A stretch of 64,000 nucleotides of DNA from a virus. Lineage: Duplodnaviria; Caudoviricetes. Each line of letters starts with the position of its first letter. Position 1 is the first letter of the stretch. The translations under genes and the position numbers were made by a program. The notes under the pieces are model-generated. The model saw only the letters and a program-made list of their open reading frames with translations, was not told the origin of the DNA and made no database searches. This document shows, in pieces, positions 3,447-58,288 of the stretch. The stretch spans positions 1-64,000 of IMG/VR virus record IMGVR_UViG_3300033072_001141; one strand, written 5' to 3'.

Positions 3447-3817
3447 CGGCTCTCCGGCTTCACGAGCAGCTCGAACATCTGCTCGAAGTCCACCGCGGTG
3501 ACCATGCGCGCGCCCGCCAGCTCCCACCGAAAGTGGGGGCTCCGATCGCTCGGCTTGGTGAGCCAGTAGAACGGCTTCTGGCCTCCGTGCTCCAGCCACG
3601 CGCGGCCCGCCGGTCCCCAGTACGCGGCCCACCCCTTCCACTCCTCGGCGTGCTCGGGCCGAAGGAACGGGATCGGGTCGAGCAGACGGACGCGCGGGAC
3701 CGGGAGCTTGTCGTTCGCAGCGCGGACGATGACTCCGACGTTCCTGGTCTCTCCGCGCAGATCGTCGGCGATGTATCTCGCCAAATACCATTGGTGCTCC
3801 ACCGGAGGCGGCGTCAT
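3443..3817 (-). CDS. DUF3037-like protein
   Basis: WYLARYIADDLRGETRNVGVIV matches the RYxPDxxRxExxNVGV pattern. Confidence 0.6.
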   Translation of the reverse strand: MTPPPVEHQWYLARYIADDLRGETRNVGVIVRAANDKLPVPRVRLLDPIPFLRPEHAEEWKGWAAYWGPAGRAWLEHGGQKPFYWLTKPSDRSPHFRWELAGARMVTAVDFEQMFELLVKPESR

Positions 3818-4332
3818 CGCACGACTCCGGTGGCGATCTTGACGAGTTGGCCGTGTGAGATGCCGTAGCGCTTCGCCATCGATCGGACGCCATCGGAGCG
3901 GTTCGGGTACTCGGCCCTGATCCGATCCACGTCGGCGTCGGACAGCTTCGCTCGCGGGTGTGTCTCACCTGGATGCGAGAGGCGCGCCGTCCCTGCGTCG
4001 ATCGCGTCCTGGAGGTTCTCTCGAACGGTACCGATCACCAGGTGCGCCGGATTGCAGCACGGCGGGTTGTTGCACGTGTGCCGGACGACCATACCGTCAG
4101 GCACCGCTTGCTGGTCCGTGATGGCGCGGACAGCGATGTGCGTGTAGCGCATTTTCCCATCGAACCGGATCTGGCCATAGCCTCCGCGTGTCTCTCGCGG
4201 GCCATGCTTCCCGGTACGCCCGCGCTTCCACGGCCAGCACTCGTCCGGACCTCGACGATCCACTCCGGCCCAGAGCTTCTCGATGAAGCTGGGGGCCAGG
4301 AACCACTGGTGCTCGACAGGCGGACCGCTCAT
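3814..4332 (-). mobile_element. Free-standing HNH homing endonuclease with C-terminal HTH
   Basis: DECWPW, GYGQI, VRHTCNNPPCCNPAHL, HPRAKLS. Confidence 0.9.
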
Positions 4333-4730
4333 CGCCGCTCCATCGGGATGATGTCGTCGAGCGTGTGACACGCGGTGCAGATCACATCTCCGCCGGTGGA
4401 CTTCTCCGGCGCGAAGACCGGCGTGATCGCGAGGGTGACGTGGAACCCGTGCTTGCAGCCTTGGTAGTTGCAGATCGGGCGCTGGCACCTGGAGCACTTG
4501 CCCGTGATCGGGTGAGCATTCGAGCAGAACCCGGCGGCCTTGAGGCAGGCGCCGCACCACCGGTTTCCTTCCTTCATCCGGTTGGACCCGAACGCCGCGA
4601 GATAGTGATCCAACTCGGCGACGAACGCGCCCTCCGAATCGGTGCCGCAGAGCGGCTTCTGATCGTCGTCGTCCGGCTTGCAGACGTGGACGACCTGGTC
4701 GGCGAACGGCGCCTCGATGACGTTGCTCAT
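4329..4730 (-). CDS. Cys-rich zinc-binding hypothetical protein
   Basis: Several CxxC pairs; ATGA coupling. Confidence 0.65.
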   Translation of the reverse strand: MSNVIEAPFADQVVHVCKPDDDDQKPLCGTDSEGAFVAELDHYLAAFGSNRMKEGNRWCGACLKAAGFCSNAHPITGKCSRCQRPICNYQGCKHGFHVTLAITPVFAPEKSTGGDVICTACHTLDDIIPMERR

Positions 4731-5149
4731 CGGTCCCTCGGGTTGGCCTGGAGCCAGGCTTCCTCCAGCTCGGCGTCGGCGAACGGTTCCACCCTCGACG
4801 CGGTCTCCCACCTGGCGTCCACGAACCACTGCGACGCGAGGTAGGCCCAGGCCGCCTCCTTGTGCTCGTGCTTGATGTCGCGGGCGCCGATCAGCACCTC
4901 CAGCGCGCGCCACGCTTCCGCAGCGACGACGCCCTTCTCCTTGTTGGGCAGCAGGCCGAACCGCTTCCAGTCCATGCCCGGCTCCATGCCGAAGCAGGCG
5001 TCGAAGAGTCGGTTCCAGCGCGTCCTGCCGCTCGACCTGAGCGTCCCGAACCCCTCCGGGATCTGATCCCATCCTGGGATCGATCCTTTCAGCGCCGAGG
5101 TGGTCGGGAACGCGCGATCGGCATCGCAAACGATGGGCACAGGGATCAT
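4727..5149 (-). CDS. Conserved-type phage hypothetical protein
   Basis: KHEHKEAAWAYLASQWF motif recalled from phage hypotheticals. Confidence 0.65.
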   Translation of the reverse strand: MIPVPIVCDADRAFPTTSALKGSIPGWDQIPEGFGTLRSSGRTRWNRLFDACFGMEPGMDWKRFGLLPNKEKGVVAAEAWRALEVLIGARDIKHEHKEAAWAYLASQWFVDARWETASRVEPFADAELEEAWLQANPRDR

Positions 5150-5156
5150 GTTGGTC

Positions 5157-7345: not shown

Positions 7346-7561
7346 TTACTTGACGCGACGAAGATGCGGCGTCTTCTTGACGCTCCTGCACTCGCTGCAC
7401 TGCGGCTGGTTCCTCACCACGTCGCCTTCGGCCCTCAGGCCGAACTTGGCGCCCGGCTTCCACCTTCGGCACTTCGTGCAGCGGAACATCACAGAGGTCA
7501 AGACAACGTTCATCGGGTACTCGACGCGGTACTCCGGACCGAGATCCTCGACCTCTTTCAT
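7346..7561 (-). CDS. Small zinc-finger protein
   Basis: CTKC...CSEC; ATGA overlap with the Endo VII stop (alternative start 7513). Confidence 0.6.
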   Translation of the reverse strand: MKEVEDLGPEYRVEYPMNVVLTSVMFRCTKCRRWKPGAKFGLRAEGDVVRNQPQCSECRSVKKTPHLRRVK

Positions 7562-8019
7562 GTGACACCAACGTAGTCCGAAACGCGACGAAGCAGTCCC
7601 ATCGCGCTCAGCTTCTCGTACTGGCCAACCATGAGGTTGCACGACTGACAGAGCAGGCCGCGGACCCTTCCGGTCGCGTGACAGTGATCCACGACCAACG
7701 TCGGACCCTTGCGCGGCTGAGGCGGCGTCTGCTGACATACGAGGCATCTGCCTCCCTGCGCGACGACCATCTCGTCGTATCCGTCCAGCGACATCCCGTA
7801 CTTGCGAAGGAGGTGGTTGGACCTGCTGCTCCGACGAACCTTGTCGGGGTTCCGCTCACGCCACTCCTTCGTCCTGGCCTTCGCTGCTTCTGGATTCTCT
7901 TGGTATCTCTTCTGGTTCCGAGACTTGTTGTAACCAGCCAACCTCTGGCGCTCCGCGAGCCTCTGCTCGTCCGTCATCTGAGCGCGCTTCTTGGCCTGGT
8001 ACTTCGCCTGCGGAGTCAT
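7558..8019 (-). mobile_element. Endonuclease VII-family free-standing endonuclease
   Basis: KYG...QGGRCLVC...VVDHCHATGRVRGLLCQSCN. Confidence 0.9.
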
Positions 8020-8059
8020 CCGCTATGTGTATCGTACTGGCAGTCGATGAGCACCACGT

Positions 8060-8572
8060 TTACGTTCTCCTCGTCCGCCTCAGGTGTTGGAGGCCGTCGA
8101 GCGGCATCGTGACCGCCTCCACAGCGCCATACCCCTCCCTCATCCTGGCGTACACGGTGGTCAGGTCGATGCCGCGGCTCTCCGCGTGCTCCCTCAGCGT
8201 GGCTCGCACGCCATCGATCTCGAACTCGGCAGGCTCCTTCCGTGCCCTCTGCCTGCACCTGGGAGAGCAGTAGAGCCTGCCGGCCAGGCACGGCTGACCG
8301 CAGTCCTCGAACGCGCACGTAGAAAAGCCCCTCCCGATGGGACGGGAGAGGCCGACGGCTACGATGTCGAGGTCGTTGTCCTCGCTCGGACCGATGATCT
8401 CAGGCGCGCGGCGCGCACTGCGGTGCGCCCGCCTGTGATCGACGCAGTAGACGTTGCCCGGATGGGCCAGTTCACCGCATCCCATCACCGCGCACGGATG
8501 AGGGAACCCGCCTAGCCCTCGCCACTTCCTGGCTTGGGGCTGGGACGGCTCTGTAGCGACTCGTTCCACCAT
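8060..8572 (-). CDS. Zinc-finger plus HTH DNA-binding protein
   Basis: CAVMGC..C..H, CAFEDC..CSPRC; C-terminus resembles the endonuclease HTH tails in this window. Confidence 0.6.
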   Translation of the reverse strand: MVERVATEPSQPQARKWRGLGGFPHPCAVMGCGELAHPGNVYCVDHRRAHRSARRAPEIIGPSEDNDLDIVAVGLSRPIGRGFSTCAFEDCGQPCLAGRLYCSPRCRQRARKEPAEFEIDGVRATLREHAESRGIDLTTVYARMREGYGAVEAVTMPLDGLQHLRRTRRT

Positions 8573-11194: not shown

Positions 11195-11443
11195 TCAGGC
11201 GTTGCGCGCCCGGTCGTACGTGTCGCGGGTCGCCGCGTCGTCGGCGTAGGCGACGGCGATCTGGCCCTTCTTGATCATGTTGTTGAGGGGCTTCCACGCC
11301 GGGTTGCCCTTCTCCTCGCCGTTGTTCAGGTCGGCGAGGTTCACACCGAGCGCGAACGAGCCCGAGGGCGCGAGCGTCCGGTTGAAGGGGAACGGGACAT
11401 CGACCGAGGCGGTGGCGGAGAGGTTCGTGACGGTGGCAATCAC
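11195..11443 (-). CDS. Small putative virion protein, paralogue of the 54420-54839 N-terminus
   Basis: MIATVTNL vs MDATVTNL. Confidence 0.65.
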   Translation of the reverse strand: MIATVTNLSATASVDVPFPFNRTLAPSGSFALGVNLADLNNGEEKGNPAWKPLNNMIKKGQIAVAYADDAATRDTYDRARNA

Positions 11444-11871
11444 TGTTCATGCTCCTTCGTCTCTACCGTGCGCTGGTGGGGACAGTACCCGTAGCGACCC
11501 AGAGACATATTGCAGTTGTGACAGAGTACCCGGTACCCATCCGGGAAGCCATTTTTCTTGAGCCACCTGGGCATCGGCATCCTGATCTGCTTTCGATGCT
11601 GTGCGCCGCCGCCTTCGATGTGGTCGATCGCCAGGAACTCGTACCTGCTTTCTCCGCAACAGGCGCAAGATCCACCGTAGTGACGGAGCACCTCTTCGCG
11701 CAGCCTGCGCTGCCACCTGGCTACGTTCGCTCGCGTCTGCGGGCGCCTCTCTTCCCTGTACCTGCGATCACAATCTTTGCAGTGACTTAGCCGGCCGTCC
11801 GCGAACTTGTTGTTGACGTGAAAGTCCGTCTCCGGCCTGGTGGCACCACACTTCACGCACTTCTTCTCCAC
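11440..11871 (-). mobile_element. Free-standing HNH endonuclease with N-terminal zinc finger
   Basis: CVKC..CKDC; YGGSCACCGE...LAIDHI...LCHNCN. Confidence 0.88.
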
Positions 11872-11911
11872 CCGGAGAAGGGTGCCATGATCGTTATCCA
11901 GCGATCATGGC
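11863..11911. promoter_or_regulatory. Two hairpins: 7-bp stem containing the HNH GTG, and a 10-bp stem just upstream
   Basis: CTTCTCC/GGAGAAG (11863-11880); GCCATGATCG/CGATCATGGC (11884-11911). Confidence 0.7.
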
Positions 11912-11916
11912 GGCAA

Positions 11917-12360
11917 TCAGCTCCCCTCGCCGCTCGAAGCCTCCGAACCAGGGTCGGACGGCGGTTCCGATGGCGTGGAGCTGGATCCACCGCCCGCATC
12001 ACCGCCCGGAGCACCCCTGGACTGGATGGCCCTGAGGATGGTCGAGACCATCGTGTCGTACCCGATCTTGCAGACGATGCCGGCCAAGCCGTACGTGCCG
12101 ACGCGCGCCGCCAGCTCGTAGCCCTCCTTCTCCAGGCCATCGGCCGGGGGGAGCCACGGGATGAGCCCGATCAGGGCGCCGGCCACCACCGGGTGCGCAG
12201 GCAGCGTGACGTAGTAGATGCGCCTCCACCCGGTCGCCGCCTTCTGGCGCTCCTTGTTCGCGCCGAGCACCAAGCGCTTGGTCACCTCGCCGAGCGCCCC
12301 GATGATCAGGGCGGCGATGATGATCGGTGGAGACAGGAGCAGGTCGGTCCAATACCGCAT
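11917..12360 (-). CDS. Putative holin
   Basis: 2-3 hydrophobic helices, hydrophilic tail; GAGGGG RBS; TGgTACCAT extended -10 at 12393-12401. Confidence 0.6.
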   Translation of the reverse strand: MRYWTDLLLSPPIIIAALIIGALGEVTKRLVLGANKERQKAATGWRRIYYVTLPAHPVVAGALIGLIPWLPPADGLEKEGYELAARVGTYGLAGIVCKIGYDTMVSTILRAIQSRGAPGGDAGGGSSSTPSEPPSDPGSEASSGEGS

Positions 12361-14462: not shown

Positions 14463-15062
14463 TCAGAGGTTCCGGCCGAGCGCCACTTCGGCCGGCTTAC
14501 CAGAGGCAAGGCGCCAAGAGATGGTGTGGCGCTTGATCCCCGTCTCCCGCGACCATTCGGCCAACGTCATCTCCTTACCGAACGCGGCGATACGGCGGTT
14601 CGTTGACTGGTTGTTGCATTGCTCCCGCTGAGTGGCCCACCGACAGTTCTCCGGAGAGTAAGGGCCGTCGTTGTTGCGTCTGTCGAGGGAAGTTCCGTTG
14701 GGTCGCGGTCCCATGTCGTTCAAGAAGTTCTGGAACCCCATCGGACCGCACCATCGCTCGTCCACGAAGATCCCGCGCCCACTGTAGCGGGACGCCTTGG
14801 CCCTGTTCGCGTCAGAGCACCGCTGGTGCATCGCCGTCCAGGACTGGTACTCCGGCGTCAGCGCTGCGCTGACGCCATGGGTGGTTGCCGAACAGGTCCG
14901 GCACGCAATAGTCGATCGAAAGTGCGTCAGGTAGCAGACGGATTCGCGGCCACAGTCGCACCTAACATGGACCCTGGTGCATCCGCGGATCGGAGCCGCC
15001 TCGGCAACCACGACCCTGGTTCCGTAACGCTCTCCAATGACGACATTGGCCTTGGCCGGCAT
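14463..15062 (-). mobile_element. Free-standing HNH-type endonuclease (RCDCG / SLDRxxNDGxY family)
   Basis: RCDCG, EYQSWTAMHQRC, SLDRRNNDGPYSPENCRWAT. Confidence 0.9.
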
Positions 15063-15064
15063 GG

Positions 15065-15391
15065 CTACAAACTCCGCTGGAGCCACCCGGCGAGCTGGCG
15101 CCGAGCCTCCTTGGGGTCGGTCTTGCCGACTTCCTCGATGCGCTCGATCTCGGAGCGCTGCGCCTCGGCCGTCGCCGTGACCTTGGCCTTCTCGACCTCA
15201 CCTTCGAGGTGGACGCGCTCGACCTCTTGCTTCGCCCGATCGGCGAGCGTGGGAGGAAGCGGATCCGTCCCGCCACCTCCAGTGCCCTTGCCCGGCCTGG
15301 TGGTGAACCTCCAGACGACGAAGAACACCGTGGCAGCCACGGCCACGAAGGCCCACCACCACTGCCGGATGAAGCGCCAGGCTGCCGTCAC
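15065..15391 (-). CDS. Putative inner-membrane spanin-like protein
   Basis: N-terminal TM (WWWAFVAVAATVFFVVW) followed by coiled coil. Confidence 0.55.
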   Translation of the reverse strand: MTAAWRFIRQWWWAFVAVAATVFFVVWRFTTRPGKGTGGGGTDPLPPTLADRAKQEVERVHLEGEVEKAKVTATAEAQRSEIERIEEVGKTDPKEARRQLAGWLQRSL

Positions 15392-15954: not shown

Positions 15955-16134
15955 TCAGCCCTCCGTGAGAGAGCGCGGCCCGCGCGGAGCGCGCTGCGGC
16001 GCGTCGTCGGTCAGGAGACGCTGGCCCGACTGGTTCTTGATGTCGGCGTGTCCGCACTCCTGGCAGGTCACCCGCGTGGTGTTGGGGCCCGCCGACTCGA
16101 CGAGCACTCGGCCTCCGCACTGGCTGCACTTCAT
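15955..16134 (-). CDS. Zinc-ribbon protein
   Basis: MKCSQCGG...CQECG; ATGA coupling. Confidence 0.65.
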   Translation of the reverse strand: MKCSQCGGRVLVESAGPNTTRVTCQECGHADIKNQSGQRLLTDDAPQRAPRGPRSLTEG

Positions 16135-18442: not shown

Positions 18443-18450
18443 GACCGTCC

Positions 18451-24210: not shown

Positions 24211-24245
24211 CCAGGCGTTGTAACTCAGTCAGAACGATAGCACAA

Positions 24246-41425: not shown

Positions 41426-41464
41426 CTACCGTACCTCCATTCCGCCGCCGACACCACCAGCCAC
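41426..41464 (-). pseudogene. 12-codon relic of the tape-measure 5' end (MAGGVGGGMEVR*)
   Basis: Resembles the TMP start MAGVGSGM; preceded by AAGAGG. Confidence 0.6.
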
Positions 41465-44165: not shown

Positions 44166-44468
44166 TCAGCATCCAGGATCCTCGTCCTCGACAACGGCAA
44201 CCAGATCGCTGTCAGCCGCCACGAGCGCGTCCAGCTCGGCATCCTCGTACACGGCGGCCTGCAACGAGAACACGGCGTGCTCCTCGACGACCGCTTCGAG
44301 GTCCAGATCGTCGATGATGCCGATGACCCAGCCATCCTCGACGTACCCGCCGCTCGGGAACGCCGGGACGATGTCAGGCAGGACGATGTAGCCGCGGGTG
44401 GCGATCCCGTACTCACCGTCGAGCCGGCCCCTCGTTGCGATATGAAGGGGCTGGATCAGCACGATCAC
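44166..44468 (-). CDS. Small structural protein
   Basis: GTGA coupling. Confidence 0.55.
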   Translation of the reverse strand: MIVLIQPLHIATRGRLDGEYGIATRGYIVLPDIVPAFPSGGYVEDGWVIGIIDDLDLEAVVEEHAVFSLQAAVYEDAELDALVAADSDLVAVVEDEDPGC

Positions 44469-45277: not shown

Positions 45278-45309
45278 GGGCACAGCTTACCCTGACGAGG
45301 TCGCGAGCG

Positions 45310-45510
45310 TTACGCCGGCCGCTTGAAGCCCATCGTTTCGAGGACCTCCCACAGCGCAAGGTAGGCACGCCCCTCGTACTTCGTCGCCTCTTCCTCGGAC
45401 GCGAACGTCATCCCATGGCTGACCAGAAGGTCGAACTTCTTGATCGTCCAGACTACGTGAAACTGATCTCTGTCCAACCGGTGCTCACTGATCCGAATCA
45501 GATCCTCCAT
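45310..45510 (-). CDS. Small hypothetical protein
   Basis: GAGGG RBS before MEDLIRI. Confidence 0.5.
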   Translation of the reverse strand: MEDLIRISEHRLDRDQFHVVWTIKKFDLLVSHGMTFASEEEATKYEGRAYLALWEVLETMGFKRPA

Positions 45511-45521
45511 AAAGCACCCTC

Positions 45522-46808
45522 TCAGAAGTCCGTCTCCAGATACAACGAAACAAGATCGAGTCCCACAGCAAGAGCCGTGGCGTTGTTCGTTCTCCACGCC
45601 TGAACCGCGAGCAGCGTGGTGCTAGTAGGAATGTCGGTGGTCCACGTTCCCTCTGACACGTCTCCAGTGTTGAGTCGCTCCACTCTATATCCGACCTGTC
45701 CATCGCCACTGTTGGAGAACAGGATCAGCTCGTAAGCGTCAGCACTCAGTGTCGCTGCTGGAAAGTTGGCGCCAAGATCAACGGTGGTGGCAGTTCCGGA
45801 ACCATCGTTGCGGATAAGATGGAGGTTCGTCGAGGTGGAGAGCTGGCATACGCCGAGCACGTTGGTCAACGTATTCGGCTCTACGTTGGTGGGCGCTCCG
45901 GTCGCGGTGCTCAGGCCGCAGAACATTCTCGCCCCGGACACGGTGGCGGCGTCGCTCGGTACGAATCTCATGACAAGCATGAATCCGCCACCGACGCCAT
46001 CGCCGATGTAGATCTGAGCCGCAGCCAACCTCGCACCGGCAAGAGACCCAGCCGCAGCCGCGGACACGTACCCGAGTCTACGCATGGACGTAGCCATGTT
46101 CGTCACGGCTACCGTTCTCGATGTTGCCGTTCCGGTGGCCGTTGGAGCAGCGATCCCATCGGCCAATGGAGCGATTGTAGCGTTACCAATAGGCTTCCAC
46201 TCGCCAATCCTGTTTCGACCCAAAAACGGCTGTAGACTCGTGTTTCTGCCGCTTGGACCAATGGCGGCTGGAAGCACTCGACCGGCGAGACCTCTACCGA
46301 ACAGCTTCACCCGACTCGCCGCTGGCGGTGCCGGCGTCGCGATTGATTGAAGCGCCAGCTCGGATCCGTCGATGAGCGCATTCCCAGCAGCGGCAGGTGA
46401 CCCTGCTGACACGTACAGGATCGATCCGTCTGAGCCGCTGAACCCAAAACTCCTTTCGCCACCGTTCGCCTCGATGACCTTCCAACCCTCTCCTCTGACG
46501 TACCAGATACCGCTTCCGGCGGGAACCGCGTACGTCCTCGTGAGTCTGGTATTGGTAGTGTCGAACTGGTGAATCGTGACGTTGTGGGTGATCGAGTCGC
46601 GGTTCACGATCTCGACGTATGTGATTACCCTATTCCCGGACCCAGGCGCCGAGACAATCGTTACCGGGGTCGTTCCGTTGCTGCTTCCTCGTTCGTTGAC
46701 GTACGAAAGCGTCGTCCCGGAGTCATCCACGCTGTGCGTGACGAAGTCCACCGACGTACCGGCGGCGCCGAGAAGCATTCTGAGCTGCCACGGGGACGTG
46801 AGAATCAT
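45522..46808 (-). CDS. Fibre-like structural protein, lower GC
   Basis: Gly/Thr/Ala rich; ATGA coupling. Confidence 0.7.
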   Translation of the reverse strand: MILTSPWQLRMLLGAAGTSVDFVTHSVDDSGTTLSYVNERGSSNGTTPVTIVSAPGSGNRVITYVEIVNRDSITHNVTIHQFDTTNTRLTRTYAVPAGSGIWYVRGEGWKVIEANGGERSFGFSGSDGSILYVSAGSPAAAGNALIDGSELALQSIATPAPPAASRVKLFGRGLAGRVLPAAIGPSGRNTSLQPFLGRNRIGEWKPIGNATIAPLADGIAAPTATGTATSRTVAVTNMATSMRRLGYVSAAAAGSLAGARLAAAQIYIGDGVGGGFMLVMRFVPSDAATVSGARMFCGLSTATGAPTNVEPNTLTNVLGVCQLSTSTNLHLIRNDGSGTATTVDLGANFPAATLSADAYELILFSNSGDGQVGYRVERLNTGDVSEGTWTTDIPTSTTLLAVQAWRTNNATALAVGLDLVSLYLETDF

Positions 46809-47761
46809 GACTTGCTCCCGAACATGAGAAGGCGCCTTGCCACATCGTATGTGGTGAGTCCTCCGCCTCCGTACGGCGTGTAACCACCCATATCCGCCAC
46901 TGGAAGCCTGACGCTGATTCCGGTTGGTGATCCGACCTTCGTCAGATTTCCCGTTCCTACGGCAGGTGTCACCGTGGCTGGCACCGTGAAGAACGATGCG
47001 CCGGTGTACGCGAGAGTCCACGACACAACGTCGGTAGGCAACTCTCTCCTGCTCAGGGCCGTGCCAATCGCCGTTCTGAGCTGATCGTCGGTCAGGGTGC
47101 CGGACAGATAGCCAAGTCCGAAGTATCCAGACCTAGCGTCTCTCTCGTCAGTGAACGCGGTTGTCCACCCGATCCTCAGCGTACCGGCTGACGCTGGGCT
47201 CACCGCTCCCGACTGAGATGCCGTGAACTCGTGAGGACCAGGCCCGACCCACACACTCACCGTGGTCGTTCCAGCGCTCTCTGTGACCCTAAGCGCCACG
47301 GCAAAGAACGAACCGACACGAATGTTCGAGAACAGAAGGTTCTGCGGAATCTGTAGCGCCGTTTCGACGCCACCGACATAGACGCGCGCCTGGAACTGTC
47401 CGTACTGCCACCACATCTCCCATCCGGTGGTTCCGTTGATGTTCCTGGCAATCGGATGAACCTTCGACACATCGAGGTTTCTGGCCGGTGAGAAAAGCAC
47501 CAGTACGATGAACTGCGTTGCCCCTGGGGCCAGCCCGGTCGTCGCGCCTTCGTAGTAGTTCGACAGCGAGTCCGTGAAGAACCCTCGGGCGAGAGGAGCC
47601 TCTCCCTCGCGAGGATCGAACACACCCGACCCGTCGCGCATCCGGAACGCGTTTCCGTTCCTTCGGATGCCACCCAGAGCAGACGGATCCGCCAAAGCAT
47701 CGTCCAGGATGATGCCCTCTTCGTCCGACTCTCCAGGTCTCCTGTCAGGAGTCTGAGCCAC
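46805..47761 (-). CDS. Structural protein with LamG/ConA-like domain, lower GC
   Basis: GWEMWW, FFAVAL, LRIGW, LTDDQL pattern. Confidence 0.65.
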   Translation of the reverse strand: MAQTPDRRPGESDEEGIILDDALADPSALGGIRRNGNAFRMRDGSGVFDPREGEAPLARGFFTDSLSNYYEGATTGLAPGATQFIVLVLFSPARNLDVSKVHPIARNINGTTGWEMWWQYGQFQARVYVGGVETALQIPQNLLFSNIRVGSFFAVALRVTESAGTTTVSVWVGPGPHEFTASQSGAVSPASAGTLRIGWTTAFTDERDARSGYFGLGYLSGTLTDDQLRTAIGTALSRRELPTDVVSWTLAYTGASFFTVPATVTPAVGTGNLTKVGSPTGISVRLPVADMGGYTPYGGGGLTTYDVARRLLMFGSKS

Positions 47762-48332
47762 GCTTCACGCGTCTCCTGGTCGCCTGGACCGCTCTCTTGG
47801 CTACCGGAGATGACGGCACCGCCTGAGCATCCGCCTGAGCATCCTCAGACATGGCCTCGCGGAGACGCTGCTCCTTGATGGACACTGGGGCGCGCCTTCC
47901 CTCCGGCCTGCCCTCCGACGCAGCATCGAGCACCGGCTGCTCGGATGCCTCCTTCTCCAGCTCGATCAGCTTGGCGCGTTCGGCGTCGAAGCGCTTCTTC
48001 ACCAGACCCACGAGCTTCTCGGTCTGCAACACCGCTCCGCTCTTGGCGATGACGGCGTTGGTAGCCTGCGCGTGCAACGTGGTGCAGACGCCCATGGCAC
48101 GCTGCACCCACTTGGAAACAACCGACGCCGTCTCCATCGGGATTTTGCCGTCGTTGAGGTCCTGCTGTAGGTGCGGGAGGAGCTGCCCGATCAACTTCTC
48201 CGCCGTCGCATAGGCCGCCTTGGCACCTTCCTGCTGCTGCACCTCGACCTTCGCCGCTTCGAGCTGGTCGTCGAGGTCCGCGCCGATGTCGTTGGTGACC
48301 GCGACGCGAATCTGCTGCTTGAGCACACTCAC
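47745..48332 (-). CDS. Coiled-coil hypothetical protein
   Basis: GAGGTGA RBS; heptad pattern. Confidence 0.65.
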   Translation of the reverse strand: MSVLKQQIRVAVTNDIGADLDDQLEAAKVEVQQQEGAKAAYATAEKLIGQLLPHLQQDLNDGKIPMETASVVSKWVQRAMGVCTTLHAQATNAVIAKSGAVLQTEKLVGLVKKRFDAERAKLIELEKEASEQPVLDAASEGRPEGRRAPVSIKEQRLREAMSEDAQADAQAVPSSPVAKRAVQATRRRVKRGSDS

Positions 48333-48350
48333 CTCATGCCTCCATCTGAA

Positions 48351-49931
48351 TCAGGTGTAGCGCGCGTACGGGACGACGCAGATCACATCGGGCGTGGCAC
48401 CGGTTCCCTTGAGGGCGAACTCGAACCGGAGCTGGCCGTTGGCCAGCGACGTGCCGGGGTAGTAGTCGTTGTTCGCCGCCGCGTTCGCGCCAGGCCGGAG
48501 GAGCTGTCCGTTCAGGAACACGTCGTAGTCGGTGAGGAAGTCGCCGATGCTCATGTCGGGTAGCTGCGCGCTGAGGTTCGCACCTCCTCCGACGCCACCC
48601 ACGTCCGTGTCGGCCGCCGTGTTCGCCGTAACGGCGGCATACACCTTCGGCCGACGGCGCGCCTGGGCGATCGCGCGCAGGAGCGAGACCTCGCCGAAGG
48701 CGGTCTCGAACCTGTCCCACTCCGCCGTGGTGTCGGAGAGCTTGATGCCGGCCGTCTGCGCCCAGGTGGAGCCGGCCTGGTTGCCGTCGTCGAGGTACAG
48801 TTCGGCGAAGCCGCGCACCTCCAGGTCGCCGGCCGTCGTCGCGAGCACGCCGTCCGTGACGCCGACCGCGATGGGCCTGGTGCCGCCGGACCGGATGGTC
48901 GCGCCCGCCGCGAAGTCGTTCACGACCGCGTCGTTGTTGAACATGTCCACGTCCGTGCCGAACTGGATCTGAGACGTGCCGCCGCCGCTTCCCTCCAGGA
49001 CGCGGAAGAGCAACGCGTTCGTGAGGTCGCGGATGCGCCACGCGATGCCGGCGCTGTTGAGGTCCAGGTCGGCGTTGGTGGTCAGCTCGACGGGCGTGGT
49101 GCCCTGGTTGTCGTAGGCCACCTGGCGGGTGACGGTGGATCCCGAGGGGGTGTCCACGATCGCTCCACGGAGGAAGTCCTGCTCGTTGAGGTCCTCCAGC
49201 GCCTTGCGCTCGACCGACGCGTAGTTGACCGTCCGACCCTCGATGTCGGAGACCGGACACGCCTCCAGGTCGTCTCCCGCCGCGTTGATGCGCACGAACG
49301 AGAGCTGCGCCCTGTTCGGCGTGGTGCCCGTCATCGTGTGGCCGTCGGTCGCGGTCTCGGTCTGGAAGAGCGCGTAGACCGTGCGGCCAGAGGAAACGAT
49401 GGGATCGCGAGACGCACCGTCCACCACCTCGCAGAGGTTCTTCGGGCTGATCGCCGTCGATCCGGACACCTCGGTCAGCGAGTGCGAGGTGCCGAACGAG
49501 CCGCCATGAGCTGCCGCCACCGTGCCGCGCGTCGTGACCGCGCCGACCGCCGCCGTGGTGTTGCTCGGAAGCTGGGCGAGCGAAAGGACGACGTAGTTCT
49601 GGGTCGCCGGAACCGCCACGTCGGAGAGGTTCGTGACCGTCACGAGAACGCGCTTGCGCTCCAGCGCGTGGAGGTCGTCCGCGATGGTCTGGACGCCACG
49701 AACTGCGCCCTCGGACGGAAACACCGGCGGAGCCGTGAAGGCGTCGTACCAGTTCCCGGTCTGGAGGTCGTTGAAGTACGACAGCATCGACCGGATGTTG
49801 TTCAGGTCATCTGCGAGGCTGACCGCTCCCGACTCCATGGTCGCCGCGGGAGCCACGTTGTCCACGAAGCCGACATCCGACTGGTTCGTCGAGCTGACCT
49901 GAGCATCCTGACGAATGAAGGTGCGGGCCAT
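48351..49931 (-). CDS. Virion structural protein (fibre/collar-like)
   Basis: AGGAG RBS; TGgTAGGCT extended -10 at 49953-49961. Confidence 0.7.
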   Translation of the reverse strand: MARTFIRQDAQVSSTNQSDVGFVDNVAPAATMESGAVSLADDLNNIRSMLSYFNDLQTGNWYDAFTAPPVFPSEGAVRGVQTIADDLHALERKRVLVTVTNLSDVAVPATQNYVVLSLAQLPSNTTAAVGAVTTRGTVAAAHGGSFGTSHSLTEVSGSTAISPKNLCEVVDGASRDPIVSSGRTVYALFQTETATDGHTMTGTTPNRAQLSFVRINAAGDDLEACPVSDIEGRTVNYASVERKALEDLNEQDFLRGAIVDTPSGSTVTRQVAYDNQGTTPVELTTNADLDLNSAGIAWRIRDLTNALLFRVLEGSGGGTSQIQFGTDVDMFNNDAVVNDFAAGATIRSGGTRPIAVGVTDGVLATTAGDLEVRGFAELYLDDGNQAGSTWAQTAGIKLSDTTAEWDRFETAFGEVSLLRAIAQARRRPKVYAAVTANTAADTDVGGVGGGANLSAQLPDMSIGDFLTDYDVFLNGQLLRPGANAAANNDYYPGTSLANGQLRFEFALKGTGATPDVICVVPYARYT

Positions 49932-49964
49932 CTTTTCTCCTGCGGTTGTGGGAGCCTACCACGC

Positions 49965-50651
49965 TCATGGAGCGGGCACGTAGTCGATCACCAGCTTGTC
50001 CGTTGAGCGCGGAGGGAACTGCATGTGGATCGTGTCGTACCCGGTCCCGATGCCACCGCTCTCCTCGGCCACGTAGTCGTTGCCTGCGCCCTCGTCGAGC
50101 AACACCCCGTTGAGGTACACCGACTCGCGCTCGTAGCCCACGTGGACGAACTTGGCGCCCACGGTGAAGATGAGGTTCACCGAGTTCTTCGTGCCGAGGA
50201 CCGGCTCCCGGTATCTCCGCACGGCGGATCCATCGGGTCCGCCGAAGGCCACGTCCTGCGGCGAGACCAGCAGCTCGTTCGAGCTGGTCGCCACCGCCAT
50301 CTGCTGGAAGAAGACGGATCCGGACGGGTAGGTCAGGTCTCCGACCTTTGCCAGACGCCCATCGGTGCCTACCAGGTACGCCACACCGGCGACGAGACCG
50401 GTGTAGATGCCCACCATCGGACCGTGGAACTGCACAACGCAGAGCGTCGGGCTGTCCTTTCGGACAATGACGCCGACCGCCGGTGGGCTGCCGGGGACCG
50501 TGATGTCCACCCTGGCGACCTGGTATCGGTTCGCGACCTTCGGCCCGGTGATGCGAACGCAGTCGCCGACGAGATCTCCGGCCAAGCAGTTGGCCTTGCC
50601 CAAGATCTTCTGCGCGCGGGGAATCGAGGCTGCGTTCACCTTCGCGGTCAT
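49965..50651 (-). CDS. Virion structural protein
   Basis: GLVAGVAYLVGTDG; VYLNGVLL..G..NDY motif shared with the 48351 C-terminus. Confidence 0.65.
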   Translation of the reverse strand: MTAKVNAASIPRAQKILGKANCLAGDLVGDCVRITGPKVANRYQVARVDITVPGSPPAVGVIVRKDSPTLCVVQFHGPMVGIYTGLVAGVAYLVGTDGRLAKVGDLTYPSGSVFFQQMAVATSSNELLVSPQDVAFGGPDGSAVRRYREPVLGTKNSVNLIFTVGAKFVHVGYERESVYLNGVLLDEGAGNDYVAEESGGIGTGYDTIHMQFPPRSTDKLVIDYVPAP

Positions 50652-50665: not shown

Positions 50666-51301
50666 TCAGAGCCGCGCGTCGTCGTTCCTCGTCACGGCGC
50701 TCACGATCTCGACCGCCGCGGAAGTTGCGCGCGCGGCCACCGGGCTGACCGTCGCCAGCGTCAGTTCGGCCACATGCTCTGGCTGGACCTCAAGCTCCTG
50801 GATGGACACGTCCGAGGAGGTCGCGTCGAAGTCGGAGCCCGCCTTGTACCTCGTCGGCAGGCAGTCGTAGAGGATCCACCCGCGGCCTGGAGTTCGTAGT
50901 GCTGCCTGGAGGAACGCCGTGTCGGGGAACGAGAGATTCGAGCCTGTGACCTGCGACTGCACCTTCCAGCCGAGGAAGTGGACGATCACGAGCGTGCGCC
51001 GAATCGGCTGCCGCCCGACGATGGCCCCGGTGATCCAGTTGTAGAAGTCGGAGTCGTAGAAGCGCGCCCCCCTGGACATCGAGACCGGACCTGCCTCGGC
51101 CTTCTTCACGATCCGGCGCTTGTACTCCCAGTTCCCCGGTTGCACATCGCGCAGCTCGACGGAGATCTCCGGAGCGGTGCAGGCCGAGAAGCCGAGCGCC
51201 GGATCGAAGATGCTGAGCAGCGAGTTCCCGCTGGGTCCCGACGCATCGAAGACCCAGAACGGGAACGCCTGCATCATGTCGAGAAGCCGCGCTCTCGCCA
51301 A
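50666..51301 (-). CDS. Tail tube-like protein, paralogue 2 (gp19/gp54-like)
   Basis: GFSACTAPEI, GPVSMSRG, P.RYKAGSDFDATSSDVSIQELEV; TTG start. Confidence 0.85.
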   Translation of the reverse strand: MARARLLDMMQAFPFWVFDASGPSGNSLLSIFDPALGFSACTAPEISVELRDVQPGNWEYKRRIVKKAEAGPVSMSRGARFYDSDFYNWITGAIVGRQPIRRTLVIVHFLGWKVQSQVTGSNLSFPDTAFLQAALRTPGRGWILYDCLPTRYKAGSDFDATSSDVSIQELEVQPEHVAELTLATVSPVAARATSAAVEIVSAVTRNDDARL

Positions 51302-51304
51302 AAC

Positions 51305-52117
51305 CTACCGTCCTTCCGAGAAGATACCGAACTTGCGTTCGCAACGGATGCCGAGGCTGTCAGCGTAGATTGCAAGCCCAAGCGCGTCCACGTTCTGACC
51401 GAAGAACCGGAGCTGTCCGATGCCGGTCTTCAACATCGACCTCGTACCCTTCGCACCATACTCCATCGCGAGTGCCTGAGCGTCGTCGAGCATCCGAACG
51501 CTCTTCGATGTCAGCGCGCCAACCAGGTACGACCTCGTGCGTCGCTTGTCCGCCCAGCGGTTCCACGACCCATCGGAGTCCCAGAGTCCGCGAAGGAAGT
51601 GGGTGCGGTGGCCGCCGGCCTGGGGGATGCGGATCCTCTCTGCCTTGTTGCCGTAGCTGAGGCCCAACATCTCCTCGGCCAGCTCCACCAACGTGATGCC
51701 GCCGAGGTAGACGCTGACGCAGCCCTTGCGCTCGTAGAGGGAGCCGCCGCCGCTGAGGTCGCGAACACGCTCGCACACCTCCCGCGTCCCGCACAGATGG
51801 ACCGCCCTCCGCTCGATCCACCCGTCGCCGGAGATGAGGCCCCATGCCCACGCGCTGGCCGGCGTCCACGTCGCCCAAAACTCGCTCTTGAACGGCAAGA
51901 CGCGGTTCATGCGCCCGTTGGCCGAGCGGTAGTCCTCCGGCGTCCGAAGAACCCCGCGCGCCTCTAGGAAGCGCCTTGCACGGTCGCGAGGGAACCCTGT
52001 GACCCTCGATGCCGCCGCGCTGGAGCCCAGTTCCTCGTAGGCACGAAGGAGCGCTGACTCCATCTCTGGAGTTACCTCACGTCGGTTCCAGGCAGCGGCG
52101 CCGACTACGAACACCAC
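51305..52117 (-). mobile_element. Free-standing LAGLIDADG (intein-type, double-motif) endonuclease with HTH
   Basis: WGLISGDG, FLRGLWDSDGS; own TGcTAGGAT box 6 nt before GTG. Confidence 0.88.
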
Positions 52118-52139
52118 GCCTGCATCCTAGCACAAGAGG

Positions 52140-52415
52140 CTAGGACTGGGCGACGATCTCCATGGCGCGCGGAAGCGGATCCGAGCACCGAGGGAAGTGC
52201 ATGGCGCTGGTCTCCGGGTACGCGGCCGTGCCGAACTCGGCGACCATCACGCCGTCTCGCCATGCGCGAGACCGGCCCGGGTACTTCCGGTCCTTTCCGC
52301 CGGGCACCGTCACAGTGATGATGTCCACGGTGACCTCGTCGGCCTCGATCACCTCTCCCGATTCGAGTCTGACCTGCATGAGCGCCTCCATGTCGAGCAG
52401 CCGCGGACGAGCCAC
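52140..52415 (-). CDS. Small ORF carrying the duplicated tube-2 N-terminus
   Basis: MARPRLLDM vs MARARLLDM. Confidence 0.6.
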   Translation of the reverse strand: MARPRLLDMEALMQVRLESGEVIEADEVTVDIITVTVPGGKDRKYPGRSRAWRDGVMVAEFGTAAYPETSAMHFPRCSDPLPRAMEIVAQS

Positions 52416-52445: not shown

Positions 52446-53015
52446 TCAGACGCCGATGCGGGTGCCGTCCGGGCGGATGACGCCCCAGCGCTCGACGGCC
52501 ACGTCCATCTCCATGATGCCCACGTCCGAGGTGGAGGCGTCGAGGTCGCCCGCGATCTTCACGCGGATGGGGAACGCCTCGAAGAGGAAGTAGCGCTTCG
52601 CCTCGTTGTTCGGGAACGAGGTCGCGAGGTCGTGCGGGAACGACCGGCCGGCGCGCGTCGCGTGGAACACCGTGATGTCCGTGCGGTACTCGCGACCCTC
52701 GATGGCCGCCAGGACCCAGCTCAGGAACGCCGTGTCGTTCCTGCCGACGCCGCGGGAGAAGGTGCAGTCGTTCACCGTGGGGACGCCCGGGTACTTCTCG
52801 GTGTAGGTCTTGATGCCCTCCCGGTACTCGGCCGCCTCGACCGTGAACTCCGGGGTGGTGACCGCCGTGAAGCCCGCCTCGGACGTGTCACCCACGCCTG
52901 GCGAGGGAACACCACCGGGCTGCATCGCGTCGATGGCCGCGAGTCCGTCGATCGCGCCAGCGCGCGCGTGGAAGCGGAAGTTGTGCAGCGGATCCGTCGC
53001 CTGAGCCCTCGCCAT
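52446..53015 (-). CDS. Tail tube protein (T4 gp19-like)
   Basis: DPLHNFRF, GFTAVTTP, YREG, KYPG, FLFEAFP...GDLDASTSDV. Confidence 0.92.
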   Translation of the reverse strand: MARAQATDPLHNFRFHARAGAIDGLAAIDAMQPGGVPSPGVGDTSEAGFTAVTTPEFTVEAAEYREGIKTYTEKYPGVPTVNDCTFSRGVGRNDTAFLSWVLAAIEGREYRTDITVFHATRAGRSFPHDLATSFPNNEAKRYFLFEAFPIRVKIAGDLDASTSDVGIMEMDVAVERWGVIRPDGTRIGV

Positions 53016-55210: not shown

Positions 55211-57706
55211 TCAGCCGGTCGAGCTGAACTTCTGCTGGATGCGGAAGATGATGAACTCGCCCGGCTTGTTGGGCGCGATGTAGATGTCGCAGATGACCTC
55301 GCCCGCCTCCTCGTTGTCCGCCGTGTTGTTCGACTCGTCGCAGATGACCGAGACGGCGTCCGTGAAGGTGGTGCCGGCGAAGTAGCCCTGGTTGAAGAGG
55401 TTCCGGAGGAACGACTCGACCGAGACCTGGATGCGCTGCCGGAGCGACGCGCCCACGTTCTCGAAGACGAAGCCGTGCGTGCCGTTGTAGATGCTGCTCT
55501 TGAGGAAGTTGAAGAGCCGGCGCACCTGGACGTAGCGGAAGTCGTCCGGCGGGTTCTCCAGCGTGCGCGCGCCCCAGACCGCGCGGCCGGTCTGCGGGGT
55601 GTCCACCAGGGCGTTGACCTGGCTCTGGAAGAACGTGTCGATCTCGGCGAACTCCAGCCGGCGCTCCAGGCCCTCCGAGAAGAGCAGGCGTCCGTCCTCG
55701 GTTCCCGCGGGGGCCTTGGCGACGTTCTTGTTCGTGTCCGTGCGCGCGTACACGCCCGCGACGTGTCCGATCGGCGGGATGTTGGCGCCGCGCTCCGTGA
55801 ACGGATCGGTCACGCGGATGTACGGGTAGTAGAGCGCGCCGTAGCTCGACGAGATGCCGAGCGTGAAGCGCCTCCAGTCGCGCACCTGCTGGGGCGTCAT
55901 GCCCGGCGGGCTCGCGAGGATGATGAACCACTTCTGGTTCGTCTCGGCCTCGGCGATCTGGTCGCTGGCCATCGTCACGTCGCCGGCCGCGTCCGGGATG
56001 CCGACGTTCAGCAGCTCGTCGGTGGTGAGCAGCGCGTACATGCCGCGCCGATCGGACTTGAGGGCCGGGCTGGTCATCTCGGCGCGACCGATGCCCGCCA
56101 CACCGTCCGACCCGCCGGTGAGGGCGTCGGAGGTGGCCGTGTCCGCCGGGGTGACACGCGACGAGATCTGGATGATCGAGCCGGGGCGCGCACCGGTCGG
56201 GACCGCGAGGTTCGAGGTCTCCGCCTCCGAGACCGCCGCCACGGTCCGGAAGGCGATCTTGCCGGACGTGTAGTTGACCCGGTTGTAGCCGGTGGGGGGC
56301 GCCGGATCGACATCGCCGACCAGGTTGCCGTTGCCGTCGTCCGTGATCGTGCGCGAGACGCCGGCCACGTCGGTGTAGGTGATCGAGACCGAGCCCGGCT
56401 GCACCGGCGTCGCCAGCGCGTCCGTGCGGAACCCGACCGGGATCGACGGGAAGCCGTCCGGGTCGGCCGCCGCGGTCGAGCCCCAGTTCTGGTTCGAGCC
56501 GTTGCCCGAGCCGCCGGAGCGGGTGCGCAGCTTGCCGTTGAGCGACGACGGGATGACCGGCTCGTTCGCGGGATCGACCAGCGTGATGAGGTCCGACCCC
56601 TGGGTGGGATCGTTGATGGCGGTGATGACGTAGTCCGGGTCGGACGGGTCCGTCATCGAGAGGTTCAGGAAGGTCTCCTGGACCTCGCCGTCGAGGAGAA
56701 CCTGCACGTCCGCGCGCGAGTAGGTCGCGGTGGAGCGCGTGAAGGAGTCCTCGTTGCCCCGGACCTGGACCTCCAGGTCGTTGCCCCACGCGCCCTTCGA
56801 GATCGGATCGATGTCGAAGGCGCGGCACGTGTAGGCCGCGAGGACCGAGTTCCCGCGGGCCGGCGTCGCGGGGACCGTGGTGGTGAACGCGTAGGCGCCC
56901 GTCGCGTAGTCGATGGTGCCGGGCGCAGCGAGGTCGGCACCGGTCAGCGCGCCAGATCCATCGTCCGTGATCGTCGAGAGCGCGCCCTCCGGCGTGTAGC
57001 TCATCGTGATCGCGGTCGCGTTGTCCGGAGCCTGCCCCGTCTCCGCCGACAGCGCCCAGTGGCCGGTCTTGTAGTCGATGAAGCCGCGCGTGTCGCCCGC
57101 GCCGTCCTTGAGGATGCCGTCGAAGGCCGGGTCCGTGTAGGTGTACGGCGCGGCGGCGACGGTCGTCGTCAGCGTGACCGTGCCAGGGACGATCTTGGCT
57201 CCGCCAGCGACGGATACACGACCGGCGAAGTCGAGCAGGACGCTGTCCGTGGCCGGGGAGTTGTTGGTGGCCGCCGCGACGACCGGCGTGCCGAGCCGGC
57301 GCCAGGTGATCGACACCGACGACGCCTGGACCTGCGGCGCCTGCGCGAGAGACCCGGCGAACGCCACGACCGTTCCGTCGCCGGTCTCGATGGCCTCCTC
57401 GGTCACGTCGCTGGTGATGAAGCCGTCGGCCGCCACGGCGTCCGAGGCGACCACGCGCACGACGTACGCACGCCGACCGCCGTTCGCGAAGAACGCGAAG
57501 AGGTGCAGCGGCACGCCGCTCTGGTCGGTGAAGTCGCCGAAGGTCCGCGTGAACTGCTCGAACGACGACACCAGGACGGCCTCGTCGGTCGGACCGCGGA
57601 GCGTGAATCCGACGGTGCCGAAGGTGCTCGTGGACACGCCCGTGATGGGGGCGACGCCACGACGCCGCTCCTCGACGTAGACGCCCGGGTGCAACCTTTC
57701 GACCAT
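55211..57706 (-). CDS. Tail sheath protein
   Basis: HPGVYVEE, PPIGHVAGVYARTD...V.KAPAG, WGARTL, YVQVRRL, PNKPGEFI.FRI. Confidence 0.96.
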   Translation of the reverse strand: MVERLHPGVYVEERRRGVAPITGVSTSTFGTVGFTLRGPTDEAVLVSSFEQFTRTFGDFTDQSGVPLHLFAFFANGGRRAYVVRVVASDAVAADGFITSDVTEEAIETGDGTVVAFAGSLAQAPQVQASSVSITWRRLGTPVVAAATNNSPATDSVLLDFAGRVSVAGGAKIVPGTVTLTTTVAAAPYTYTDPAFDGILKDGAGDTRGFIDYKTGHWALSAETGQAPDNATAITMSYTPEGALSTITDDGSGALTGADLAAPGTIDYATGAYAFTTTVPATPARGNSVLAAYTCRAFDIDPISKGAWGNDLEVQVRGNEDSFTRSTATYSRADVQVLLDGEVQETFLNLSMTDPSDPDYVITAINDPTQGSDLITLVDPANEPVIPSSLNGKLRTRSGGSGNGSNQNWGSTAAADPDGFPSIPVGFRTDALATPVQPGSVSITYTDVAGVSRTITDDGNGNLVGDVDPAPPTGYNRVNYTSGKIAFRTVAAVSEAETSNLAVPTGARPGSIIQISSRVTPADTATSDALTGGSDGVAGIGRAEMTSPALKSDRRGMYALLTTDELLNVGIPDAAGDVTMASDQIAEAETNQKWFIILASPPGMTPQQVRDWRRFTLGISSSYGALYYPYIRVTDPFTERGANIPPIGHVAGVYARTDTNKNVAKAPAGTEDGRLLFSEGLERRLEFAEIDTFFQSQVNALVDTPQTGRAVWGARTLENPPDDFRYVQVRRLFNFLKSSIYNGTHGFVFENVGASLRQRIQVSVESFLRNLFNQGYFAGTTFTDAVSVICDESNNTADNEEAGEVICDIYIAPNKPGEFIIFRIQQKFSSTG

Positions 57707-57709
57707 GAC

Positions 57710-58252
57710 TCAGCCTCCTGCGACGTTGGCGAGCCTGAAAGCCCGCTGATCCTGGATCCGACCCACCAGCGACACGACGTTGTCTACATGCTCAGGGAAT
57801 CGACGAATCCATCCCTTTTTGCCGTGGAGGTTCTGGTGGATGAACACCACGAGCTGCCTCCAGAGAGCGTAGTCGAGCGACTTCTTGCTCTGGAGCGGAA
57901 AGCGATCGAAGTGGGGAATGACCTTCTCGACGAGTGAGTCGATATCCTCCACGCGCAGCGACACGGACGGGTTGGCACCTGGAACCGAAGCCCTGCGTTT
58001 GGACGAAACGGGCTTCTCCCTGACGGTGCCGGCCCCGAAGTACGCGACCAGCTTGTCGAGCGTCCGTCTGTCGTCGGCGCGAAGCTGGACTTGCAGTCCT
58101 ACGTACTGATTGAAACACCGGTGGATCCGTCCCGACTGGGCCAGCTTCTCCTTGGCGGAGTACGAGGCGTAGAAGCATCCCTCGCCATCGATCAGGCCGG
58201 TGACCCACCAGCCGAACGACGGATCGTCGGGAAGCCTCAGACGCTCGACCAT
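57710..58252 (-). mobile_element. Free-standing LAGLIDADG endonuclease
   Basis: WVTGLIDGEGCF, VIPHFDRFPLQSKKSLDYALW. Confidence 0.92.
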
Positions 58253-58288
58253 GACAGTGACCTCCGTCCCAGTGGGATGAGAAGAAAC

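Follow-up and report, generated by a model that had tools for sequence, protein, structure and literature searches.

Putative homing nuclease cassettes that duplicate gene starts in an uncultured myophage genome

Introduction

In the textbook view, the homing nucleases of phages are borne by introns or inteins or are encoded between genes. Here we analysed the IMG/VR virus record IMGVR_UViG_3300033072_001141, an 81.8-kb uncultured-virus record whose first 64 kb (positions 1 to 64,000, hereafter the window) carry 13 nuclease genes. Seven of these are probably homing cassettes that lie 4-13 codons inside the downstream gene, without an intron or intein, and that supply this gene with a spare start. 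This layout is a third arrangement, found seven times and with several nuclease families, in which an insertion within coding sequence is made harmless by the spare gene start. In phage T4, MobA together with the gene 60 bypass cassette in topoisomerase also forms a nuclease cassette within coding sequence that has neither intron nor intein, and gene function is likewise kept by an unusual device. Unlike the cassettes studied here, the T4 insertion splits the gene in two and is overcome by ribosomal bypass, and no replacement copy of a gene end is supplied.

Fungal mitochondria and yeast are known to have intron-free elements that replace one end of a gene. The mitochondrial elements, called mORFs, form gene hybrids and have been described at atp6 of Allomyces macrogynus and at atp6, atp9, cox2 and nad3 of Glomus sp. 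(PMC3630166). As in the cassettes of the window, a nuclease open reading frame (ORF), which is of the LAGLIDADG or GIY-YIG type in the mORFs, lies within a protein gene without an intron, and one end of that gene is present twice. The likeness extends further, since the element-borne copy is the expressed one, the two copies are 64-81% alike in DNA with the protein kept, and the nuclease ORF frequently shares the reading frame of the host gene (PMC3630166). The two systems differ in the end that is replaced: mORFs replace the 3′ end and hence the C-terminus, whereas at all seven cassettes here it is the 5′ end that is replaced, and the ribosome-binding site and the start codon with it. They also differ in host and in scale, as the mORF hosts are mitochondria and their duplicated tracts measure tens to hundreds of bases, in contrast to a phage and tracts of 12-39 bases here.

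The WHO elements at the yeast FBA1 locus combine a nuclease gene with a target-gene end that confers resistance (Coughlan et al. 2020, PMC7282813), and for Who6 allele-specific cleavage and resistance have been shown experimentally. The displaced native end is left behind as a homology arm, which resembles the layout of the cassettes here. WHO elements replace the 3′ end from a position downstream of the gene, and their nuclease is intein-derived and fused to a zinc finger. Compared with mORFs and WHO elements, the cassettes of the window are a mirror image at the 5′ end that additionally takes over and replaces the translation start signals.

In T4-like phages, the free-standing seg and mob genes are intergenic and often translationally coupled to the gene upstream, and one-sided illegitimate repair offers them a route to new sites (PMC2988022). 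Their targets lie in the neighbouring gene, and flanking markers are co-converted. Like the genes studied here, they include HNH-type nucleases between conserved genes that are present in some relatives and absent from others, and six of the 13 genes in the window fit this free-standing pattern directly. The T4 review (PMC2988022) describes neither captured nor duplicated gene starts, whereas the cassettes here have them. The arrangement is likewise not described in a study of nucleases at the boundaries of recombination in ICP1 phages, in a paper on a phage pangenome tool or in a comparison of Xanthomonas phages. We found no phage report of start-duplicating homing cassettes in the searchable full-text literature, a limited library whose silence is not proof of absence.

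Thirteen nuclease genes lie between conserved genes and are absent from two complete relatives

To find nuclease genes, ORFs with low coding potential were scanned against Pfam and PHROGs. Thirteen nuclease ORFs were identified, all on the minus strand, which carries essentially all genes of the window, and all between conserved genes. This bears out the starting point of the original prediction, which had been made from the letters of the window and placed 13 endonuclease genes at gene junctions. Three of the 13 matched Pfam weakly and PHROGs strongly. The nuclease genes sum to 6.9 kb within a 54.5-kb span and comprise three HNH_3, four other HNH, three Endo VII-like and three LAGLIDADG genes; a search of the genome with PF01844 gave no match, as the nucleases fall in other HNH models. 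Because HNH and Endo VII enzymes share the His-Me finger fold, two unrelated folds are present rather than the three that had been assumed. A fourteenth candidate at 8060-8488 had a weak HNH match and is resident in both complete relatives introduced below, and it was not counted.

The window has a GC content of 66% and includes a myophage tail module, marked by a tail sheath, two tube-like proteins, a gp25 baseplate protein, a gpD-like hub and a 1188-residue protein that resembles a tape measure. The gp25 gene (33339-33707) matches Pfam GPW_gp25 and the tail tube gene (50666-51301) matches Pfam Phage_T4_gp19. When 20 kb were compared by megablast with deposited phage genomes, no match was obtained, so no deposited phage is close at the DNA level. 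A search with the sheath protein recovered L001, a 94% relative, and the genomes G001 (186 kb; 83% sheath identity) and G002 (191 kb; 70%), both complete with terminal repeats. L001 is colinear with the window at 88% nucleotide identity, and the minus strand of the window shares its gene order with G001 between about 60.5 and 119.7 kb. Further nuclease-free relatives were gathered by a protein-anchored metagenome scan.

None of the 13 nuclease ORFs has a counterpart in G001 or in G002, and the genes that flank them in the window are adjacent there. These two genomes serve as natural controls. The window is notable for carrying so many cassettes from such varied nuclease families, with clean empty alleles to be seen in complete relatives.

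Seven junctions carry the start of the downstream gene twice

A duplicated start of the downstream gene was found at seven, perhaps eight, of the 13 cassettes, fewer than the thirteen start captures first proposed. The six peptide pairs named in that proposal, PPVEHQW[FY]LA, MPLDKS, MTIR, MAG(G)VG[GS]GM, MAR[PA]RLLDM and MVERL, were all located on the minus strand where they had been placed, and a seventh pair, at the nuclease gene beginning at 17927, was spotted by eye and then confirmed against the empty allele. In three-frame views the paired starts are also similar at the DNA level, and the similarity reaches into the ribosome-binding region or into the stop codon of the upstream gene. A repeat finder reported flanking direct repeats of 41, 26, 16 and 26 nucleotides (nt) around four cassettes, with 71-81% identity, and no terminal inverted repeats at the cassette ends.

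We then compared G001 with the upstream and the downstream junction of each cassette in three-way alignments. At all seven sites the breakpoints are sharp: G001 follows the upstream copy of the window through the first 4-13 codons of the gene and continues with the gene body that the window has downstream of the nuclease. The repeat ends coincide exactly with these alignment breakpoints. As had been predicted, the empty allele thus joins the upstream copy directly to the gene body at every duplicated junction. We refer to the upstream copy as native and to the downstream copy, which is the present start of the host gene, as cassette-borne.

The tail sheath gene (55211-57706) is preceded by a LAGLIDADG_1 gene at 57710-58252 (Pfam 8e-15), which is in frame from the captured sheath start. 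The native copy at 58238-58252 comprises the first five sheath codons after the native upstream region; 14 of its 15 nt equal the empty allele of G001, and the upstream intergenic sequence aligns as well. In the cassette-borne copy (57692-57706), three of the four codons after the start are synonymously changed. The whole cassette is shared with L001, where the cassette-borne copy is identical, and it is missing from at least five relatives, among them G001, G002 and L094. Among viral contigs, the LAGLIDADG_1 protein has a single relative.

At the tail tube gene, the native copy of the first nine codons (52389-52415; direct repeat D1, 26 nt, 81%) opens a 91-codon ORF without family match (52140-52415), which runs in frame from the captured start and precedes the LAGLIDADG_3 nuclease ORF (51305-52117; Pfam 27 bits, above the cut-off). 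This nuclease, the second ORF of the cassette, is absent from nine relatives. The cassette-borne copy lies at 51275-51301.

The gp25 start has been captured by an HNH_3 gene (33704-34216; Pfam 5e-13) that is in frame with it. The native copy consists of the first four gp25 codons (34205-34216; direct repeat D2), which encode the same four residues that open gp25 in G001 and G002, and the cassette-borne copy lies at 33696-33707. The gene for the 1188-residue protein (37383-40949) shows a different connection. Its native start and eight further codons, followed by three foreign codons and a stop, form a stub ORF at 41426-41464, as recognized by comparison with the G001 and G002 alleles, with the breakpoint after 8-9 codons. 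The stop of the stub abuts the ATG of an HNH gene (40949-41425; phrog_3377, 2e-39) at 41426/41425, and the cassette-borne copy occupies 40926-40949.

Three further cassettes precede the genes 3443-3817, 16131-17924 and 18451-19188. The HNH_3 ORF at 3814-4332 (Pfam 1e-7) is in frame from the captured start of gene 3443-3817. Its native copy spans the start and 12 codons (4294-4332; direct repeat D1, 41 nt, 71%), so that the breakpoint follows codon 13, and its last 27 nt are identical to G001. The cassette-borne copy (3779-3817) differs from it mostly by synonymous changes and contains rare codons. At gene 16131-17924, an Endo VII-like ORF (17927-18454; phrog_3322, 2e-37) is read from the captured start as 17927-18442. 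The native copy here, the start and nine codons at 18413-18442, is partly decayed, with its first three codons equal to the G001 allele; the cassette-borne copy (17895-17924) leads into a gene body whose alignment with G001 begins at the junction, after codon 10. At gene 18451-19188, an ORF with HTH_23 and LAGLIDADG_3 matches in Pfam (19178-19795) is in frame from the captured start. The native copy (19781-19806; direct repeat D2, 26 nt, 81%) contains the end of the upstream gene, the overlap and the first five codons up to the breakpoint, and matches the empty site of G001. Its cassette-borne counterpart (19174-19199) imitates the last codons of the upstream gene and holds the nuclease stop together with the new start. 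As a separate observation at the first of these loci, the two genes that flank the HNH_3 gene 3814-4332 in the window have an unrelated small ORF of about 58 codons between them in G001 (117631-117805; L026), so that this site is not simply empty there.

Ahead of each of the seven insertions, the native ribosome-binding site of the host gene is retained with the native start codon and first codons. This native start opens the nuclease ORF itself in five cases, the 91-codon ORF at the tail tube and the 12-codon stub at the 1188-residue protein gene. In six of the seven cases a long ORF is read in frame from the captured start (P = 0.007 under a one-in-three expectation), and for the five direct nuclease fusions alone the in-frame bias has a P of about 0.045. 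At the 3′ end of the cassettes, a Shine-Dalgarno-like motif is found 6-11 nt ahead of the new start, mostly within the last codons of the nuclease, and the nuclease stop overlaps or nearly touches the new start of the host gene. The host gene stays whole because a Shine-Dalgarno-like motif, a start codon and the first 4-13 codons come with each of the seven cassettes, in line with the earlier proposal that the ribosome-binding site and the N-terminus are rebuilt. Each nuclease ORF has a stop codon of its own, and none is inserted in frame within a host protein. The arrangement also proved to be intron-free as proposed, since an Rfam scan of the window found no family and hence no group I or II intron model. 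The nuclease proteins have no similarity to the downstream proteins beyond the duplicated start, and no transposase family was matched by any cassette ORF in Pfam or PHROGs.

To assess how readily such likeness arises, we scored anchored N-terminal similarity between neighbouring genes. Unanchored local alignment of gene junctions at the DNA level picked just two cassettes, as shared ribosome-binding motifs raise its noise floor; the anchored peptide scores and the three-way alignments were used instead for this reason. The two best cassettes scored 35 and 28, above a cross-locus null with a 99.9th percentile of 21 and a maximum of 27, which excludes chance for these strong cases. With four and five residues, respectively, the gp25 and sheath pairs do not reach significance by length alone. 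No start duplication was detected at 61 HNH_3 loci of unrelated phages (top score 13) or at three HNH_3 genes elsewhere in G002 (scores of 10 or less), and 45 loci with the conserved N-terminal domain of gene 18451-19188 yielded nothing above a reverse-strand null.

The same start has been invaded more than once

In L001, a different LAGLIDADG_3 gene (L001:6663-7320) occupies the tail tube start. It is 33% identical to the LAGLIDADG_3 gene of the window, directly follows the upstream stop and brings its own, differently spelled tube start. Since two such diverged nucleases are found at the tail tube, the same gene start has been invaded more than once, much as a single site is repeatedly invaded by diverged nucleases in the WHO system (PMC7282813). 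Start capture by the L001 ORF was considered and not called, as the "VA" that it shares with the tail tube start is too short.

Spelling of the cassette-borne starts

We next asked how the two copies differ. Six pairs (36 codons) together show differences at 28 of 108 nt; of the codon changes, 19 are synonymous and 3 are non-synonymous. When each was compared with G001, the native copies had diverged by 15%, the cassette-borne copies by 28% and the next 120 nt of the gene bodies by 24%. Positions at which only the native copy matches G001 numbered 22 in these six pairs, against 8 at which only the cassette-borne copy matches (P of about 0.016). In mORFs, the displaced native copy is the one closer to relatives (PMC3630166); in the window, the six pairs lean this way, the sheath gives a mixed picture, and the lean loses significance once the seventh pair is counted. 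By case, the cassette-borne copy is further from the relatives than the native copy in five of seven, and at the tail tube the native copy is the closer one to eight of nine empty relatives. Rare codons, defined by a relative usage under 0.10, make up 12 of 47 codons (26%) in the cassette-borne copies versus 12.8% of codons 2-10 of the host genes (P = 0.013); in the bodies of the nuclease ORFs the value is 14.6%. The claim that the downstream copy is usually the AT-richer one held for five of the seven pairs; the copies are equal in one and the order is reversed in another.

Several results weigh against reading the cassettes as homing elements whose starts were recoded for resistance. The 28% divergence of the cassette-borne copies is close to the gene-body background of 24%, so that recoding need not have been selected. 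When the seventh pair is added, the count of matches becomes 25:16 and is no longer significant (P = 0.21), and at 17927 it is the native copy that is more diverged. Relatives without the nuclease had been expected to lack the AT-rich start, and this held only in part, since nuclease-free L094, L110 and L003 already have the AT-richer third and fourth sheath codons; the replacement copy may thus be a natural foreign allele rather than a purpose-made recoding. At the tail tube, both copies have the same nine bases beside the junction, which agrees poorly with the idea that a site centred there is destroyed. Finally, six of the 13 cassettes manage without a confirmed start duplication. Taken together, the cassette-borne copy travels with the cassette and is foreign in its spelling; this spelling may have been selected for resistance or may simply be the allele of the donor lineage, and the support for recoding is modest.

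A model for start capture and its alternatives

The structure described above is fully supported for the seven cassettes, and from it we infer a function in homing: the nuclease would be translated from the captured start, would be specific for the empty junction and would spare the occupied allele. During mixed infection it would cut the uninterrupted allele at or near the junction. Repair would then copy the cassette, with the upstream gene and the native start as the homology arm on one side and the gene body as the arm on the other, and the cassette-borne start would differ enough to keep the right-hand junction from restoring the cut site. Had a donor passed on an upstream nuclease gene by ordinary intronless homing, no upstream copy of the start would remain. 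At the first invasion, the cut recipient may instead have kept its own start codons at the left end, where they were joined illegitimately to the nuclease gene, and the right end may have been repaired via homology in the gene body. Afterwards the retained start, contiguous with the upstream gene, would provide homology up to the break, as an exon does for an intron.

The cassettes span at least four nuclease families in two folds, which argues for convergence rather than for one element copied around the genome. We tentatively suggest that start capture could be a general and convergent homing strategy of phages that is open to any nuclease fold, in which the nuclease sits exactly at its own cut site within an essential gene, much like an intron-borne nuclease but with a short duplicated gene start in place of splicing, borrows the translation signals of its host gene and brings resistant first codons as built-in immunity; this broader claim is clearly less secure than the reading of the seven cassettes themselves.

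A neutral origin is the alternative that fares best, although we consider it unlikely. The duplications would then be scars of one-sided or illegitimate repair of double-strand breaks, in which the start of the recipient was left behind and the allele of the donor was brought along; the differences between copies would be ordinary lineage divergence without selection, and the use of the captured start would be incidental. One-sided homing with illegitimate repair at microhomologies has been described for T4 (PMC2988022), and the near-background divergence of the cassette-borne copies, the sheath codon choices shared by nuclease-free relatives and the six nuclease genes that need no confirmed start duplication all agree with such an origin. 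However, the in-frame bias at six of seven sites and the abutting stop and start at the seventh suggest selection on nuclease expression, and the enrichment of rare codons in the cassette-borne copies goes beyond that of the host N-termini. A neutral origin would moreover explain how the copies arose and leave room for resistance conferred by the foreign allele, and to this extent it overlaps with the homing interpretation.

Target-site duplication, in which a transposition-like insertion copied a short target on both sides and the copies then drifted, is very improbable. Four cassettes are indeed flanked by direct repeats, but the repeats vary in length from 12 to about 41 nt at 71-81% identity, neither a transposase gene nor terminal inverted repeats were found, and nucleases of unrelated families share the same layout. 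Drift after an exact duplication would also be expected to spare the protein-constrained downstream copy, the opposite of the five of seven cases in which this copy is further from the relatives. Least credible of all is that a GC-rich genome gave rise to similar N-termini by chance or through its composition, or that the neighbouring genes are ordinary paralogs, because, although two non-nuclease neighbour pairs are also alike (27934/26839, and 78430/77585 outside the window) and the gp25 and sheath pairs carry little weight by themselves, breakpoints fall exactly at the repeat ends at seven sites, the controls at 61, 45 and 3 loci were empty, and the nuclease and downstream proteins share nothing further.

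If the homing interpretation is correct, it would explain how selfish nucleases enter packed structural operons, here at sheath, tube, baseplate and tape measure genes, without splicing, and the logic of mORFs and WHO elements would extend beyond eukaryotic genomes. It would offer seven pairs of enzyme and target with predicted sensitive and resistant sites, and it would flag systematic annotation errors such as stub ORFs, borrowed nuclease N-termini and odd start codons. Should start capture prove general, the first codons of conserved phage genes could be a main battleground with selfish DNA and a driver of their synonymous divergence.

Nuclease genes without a confirmed start duplication

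The six other nuclease genes are homing genes of the ordinary free-standing kind. They comprise four intergenic genes, one gene at which a ribosome-binding region is duplicated and one uncertain case. The four are plain insertions between a stop codon and the next ribosome-binding site, without duplication. They are an Endo VII gene at 7558-8019 (Pfam Endonuclease_7, 1e-20), an HNH gene at 14463-15086 (phrog_374, 8e-47), a further HNH gene at 23593-24210 (phrog_374, 2e-38), which directly follows the upstream stop and has an AT-rich, promoter-like spacer, and an HNH gene at 43295-43762 (phrog_3106, 1e-24). At the HNH_3 gene with a helix-turn-helix (HTH) domain at 32780-33286 (Pfam HNH_3, 6e-11), the three-way alignment showed that the ribosome-binding region of the downstream gene alone is duplicated.

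The uncertain case is the Endo VII/HNH-like gene at 11440-11871 (phrog_2255, 2e-18). A possible stub copy lies at 11894-11920, where 10 of 12 nt match when anchored at the downstream start codon. We did not count it as an eighth capture, given this short match and an ATG after the stub that opens a tiny ORF rather than the nuclease. A 13-codon stub ORF (8016-8057) also overlaps the start of the Endo VII gene 7558-8019 through a shared stop-start; it resembles neither the start of the downstream gene nor the G001 allele.

Other features of the region

Just upstream of gp25, a 58-codon ORF with an HTH domain (34213-34389, minus strand) has a homolog in G001 (L024:13011-13184). Its product shares 58% identity with the C-terminal HTH domain of the adjacent HNH_3 nuclease; with those of the two other HNH_3 nucleases the identity is about 30%. 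We had considered it as the mark of a 190-nt duplication and dropped this idea, as the HTH domain is common to all three HNH_3 nucleases; the ORF may be a relic of an earlier nuclease invader or a stand-alone domain. Together with the tube nuclease of L001, it recalls the cycles of invasion and decay in WHO clusters (PMC7282813).

Two short repeats were noted at nuclease genes. A 20-nt direct repeat with 85% identity lies near both ends inside the LAGLIDADG_1 gene of the sheath cassette (57760-57779 and 58202-58221). An identical 8-nt motif occurs twice, against an expectation of 0.18, each time just upstream of a nuclease ORF with its own spacer (24238-24245 and 52128-52135, minus strand); it could be a promoter element of nuclease cassettes.

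The gene at 52446-53015, just upstream of the tail tube gene, is a paralog of the latter (29% identical), and this tandem pair of tube-like genes is present in all relatives. On the other side of the tail tube, a segment of about 6.5 kb (44166-50651) with eight ORFs and partly low GC content is without equivalent in both G001 and G002, in the interval from the tube gene to the homolog of the gene at 43759; it is an apparent variable module, possibly linked to host range.

The adjacent genes 26839-27924 (361 codons) and 27934-28917 (327 codons) have similar N-termini that score as high as the cassettes, and neither gene matches any family. This is probably a tandem paralog pair of the tail-fibre region. 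Beyond the window, the remaining genes of the record gave no nuclease-like signal, and all but one have counterparts in G001. There, a RusA-like resolvase gene (78430-78861) and the next gene (77585-78433; L165) are alike in sequence at their junctions and in several of their first residues. As a resident gene of G001, the resolvase was rejected as an eighth capture, and its likeness to the next gene reflects chance or something older.

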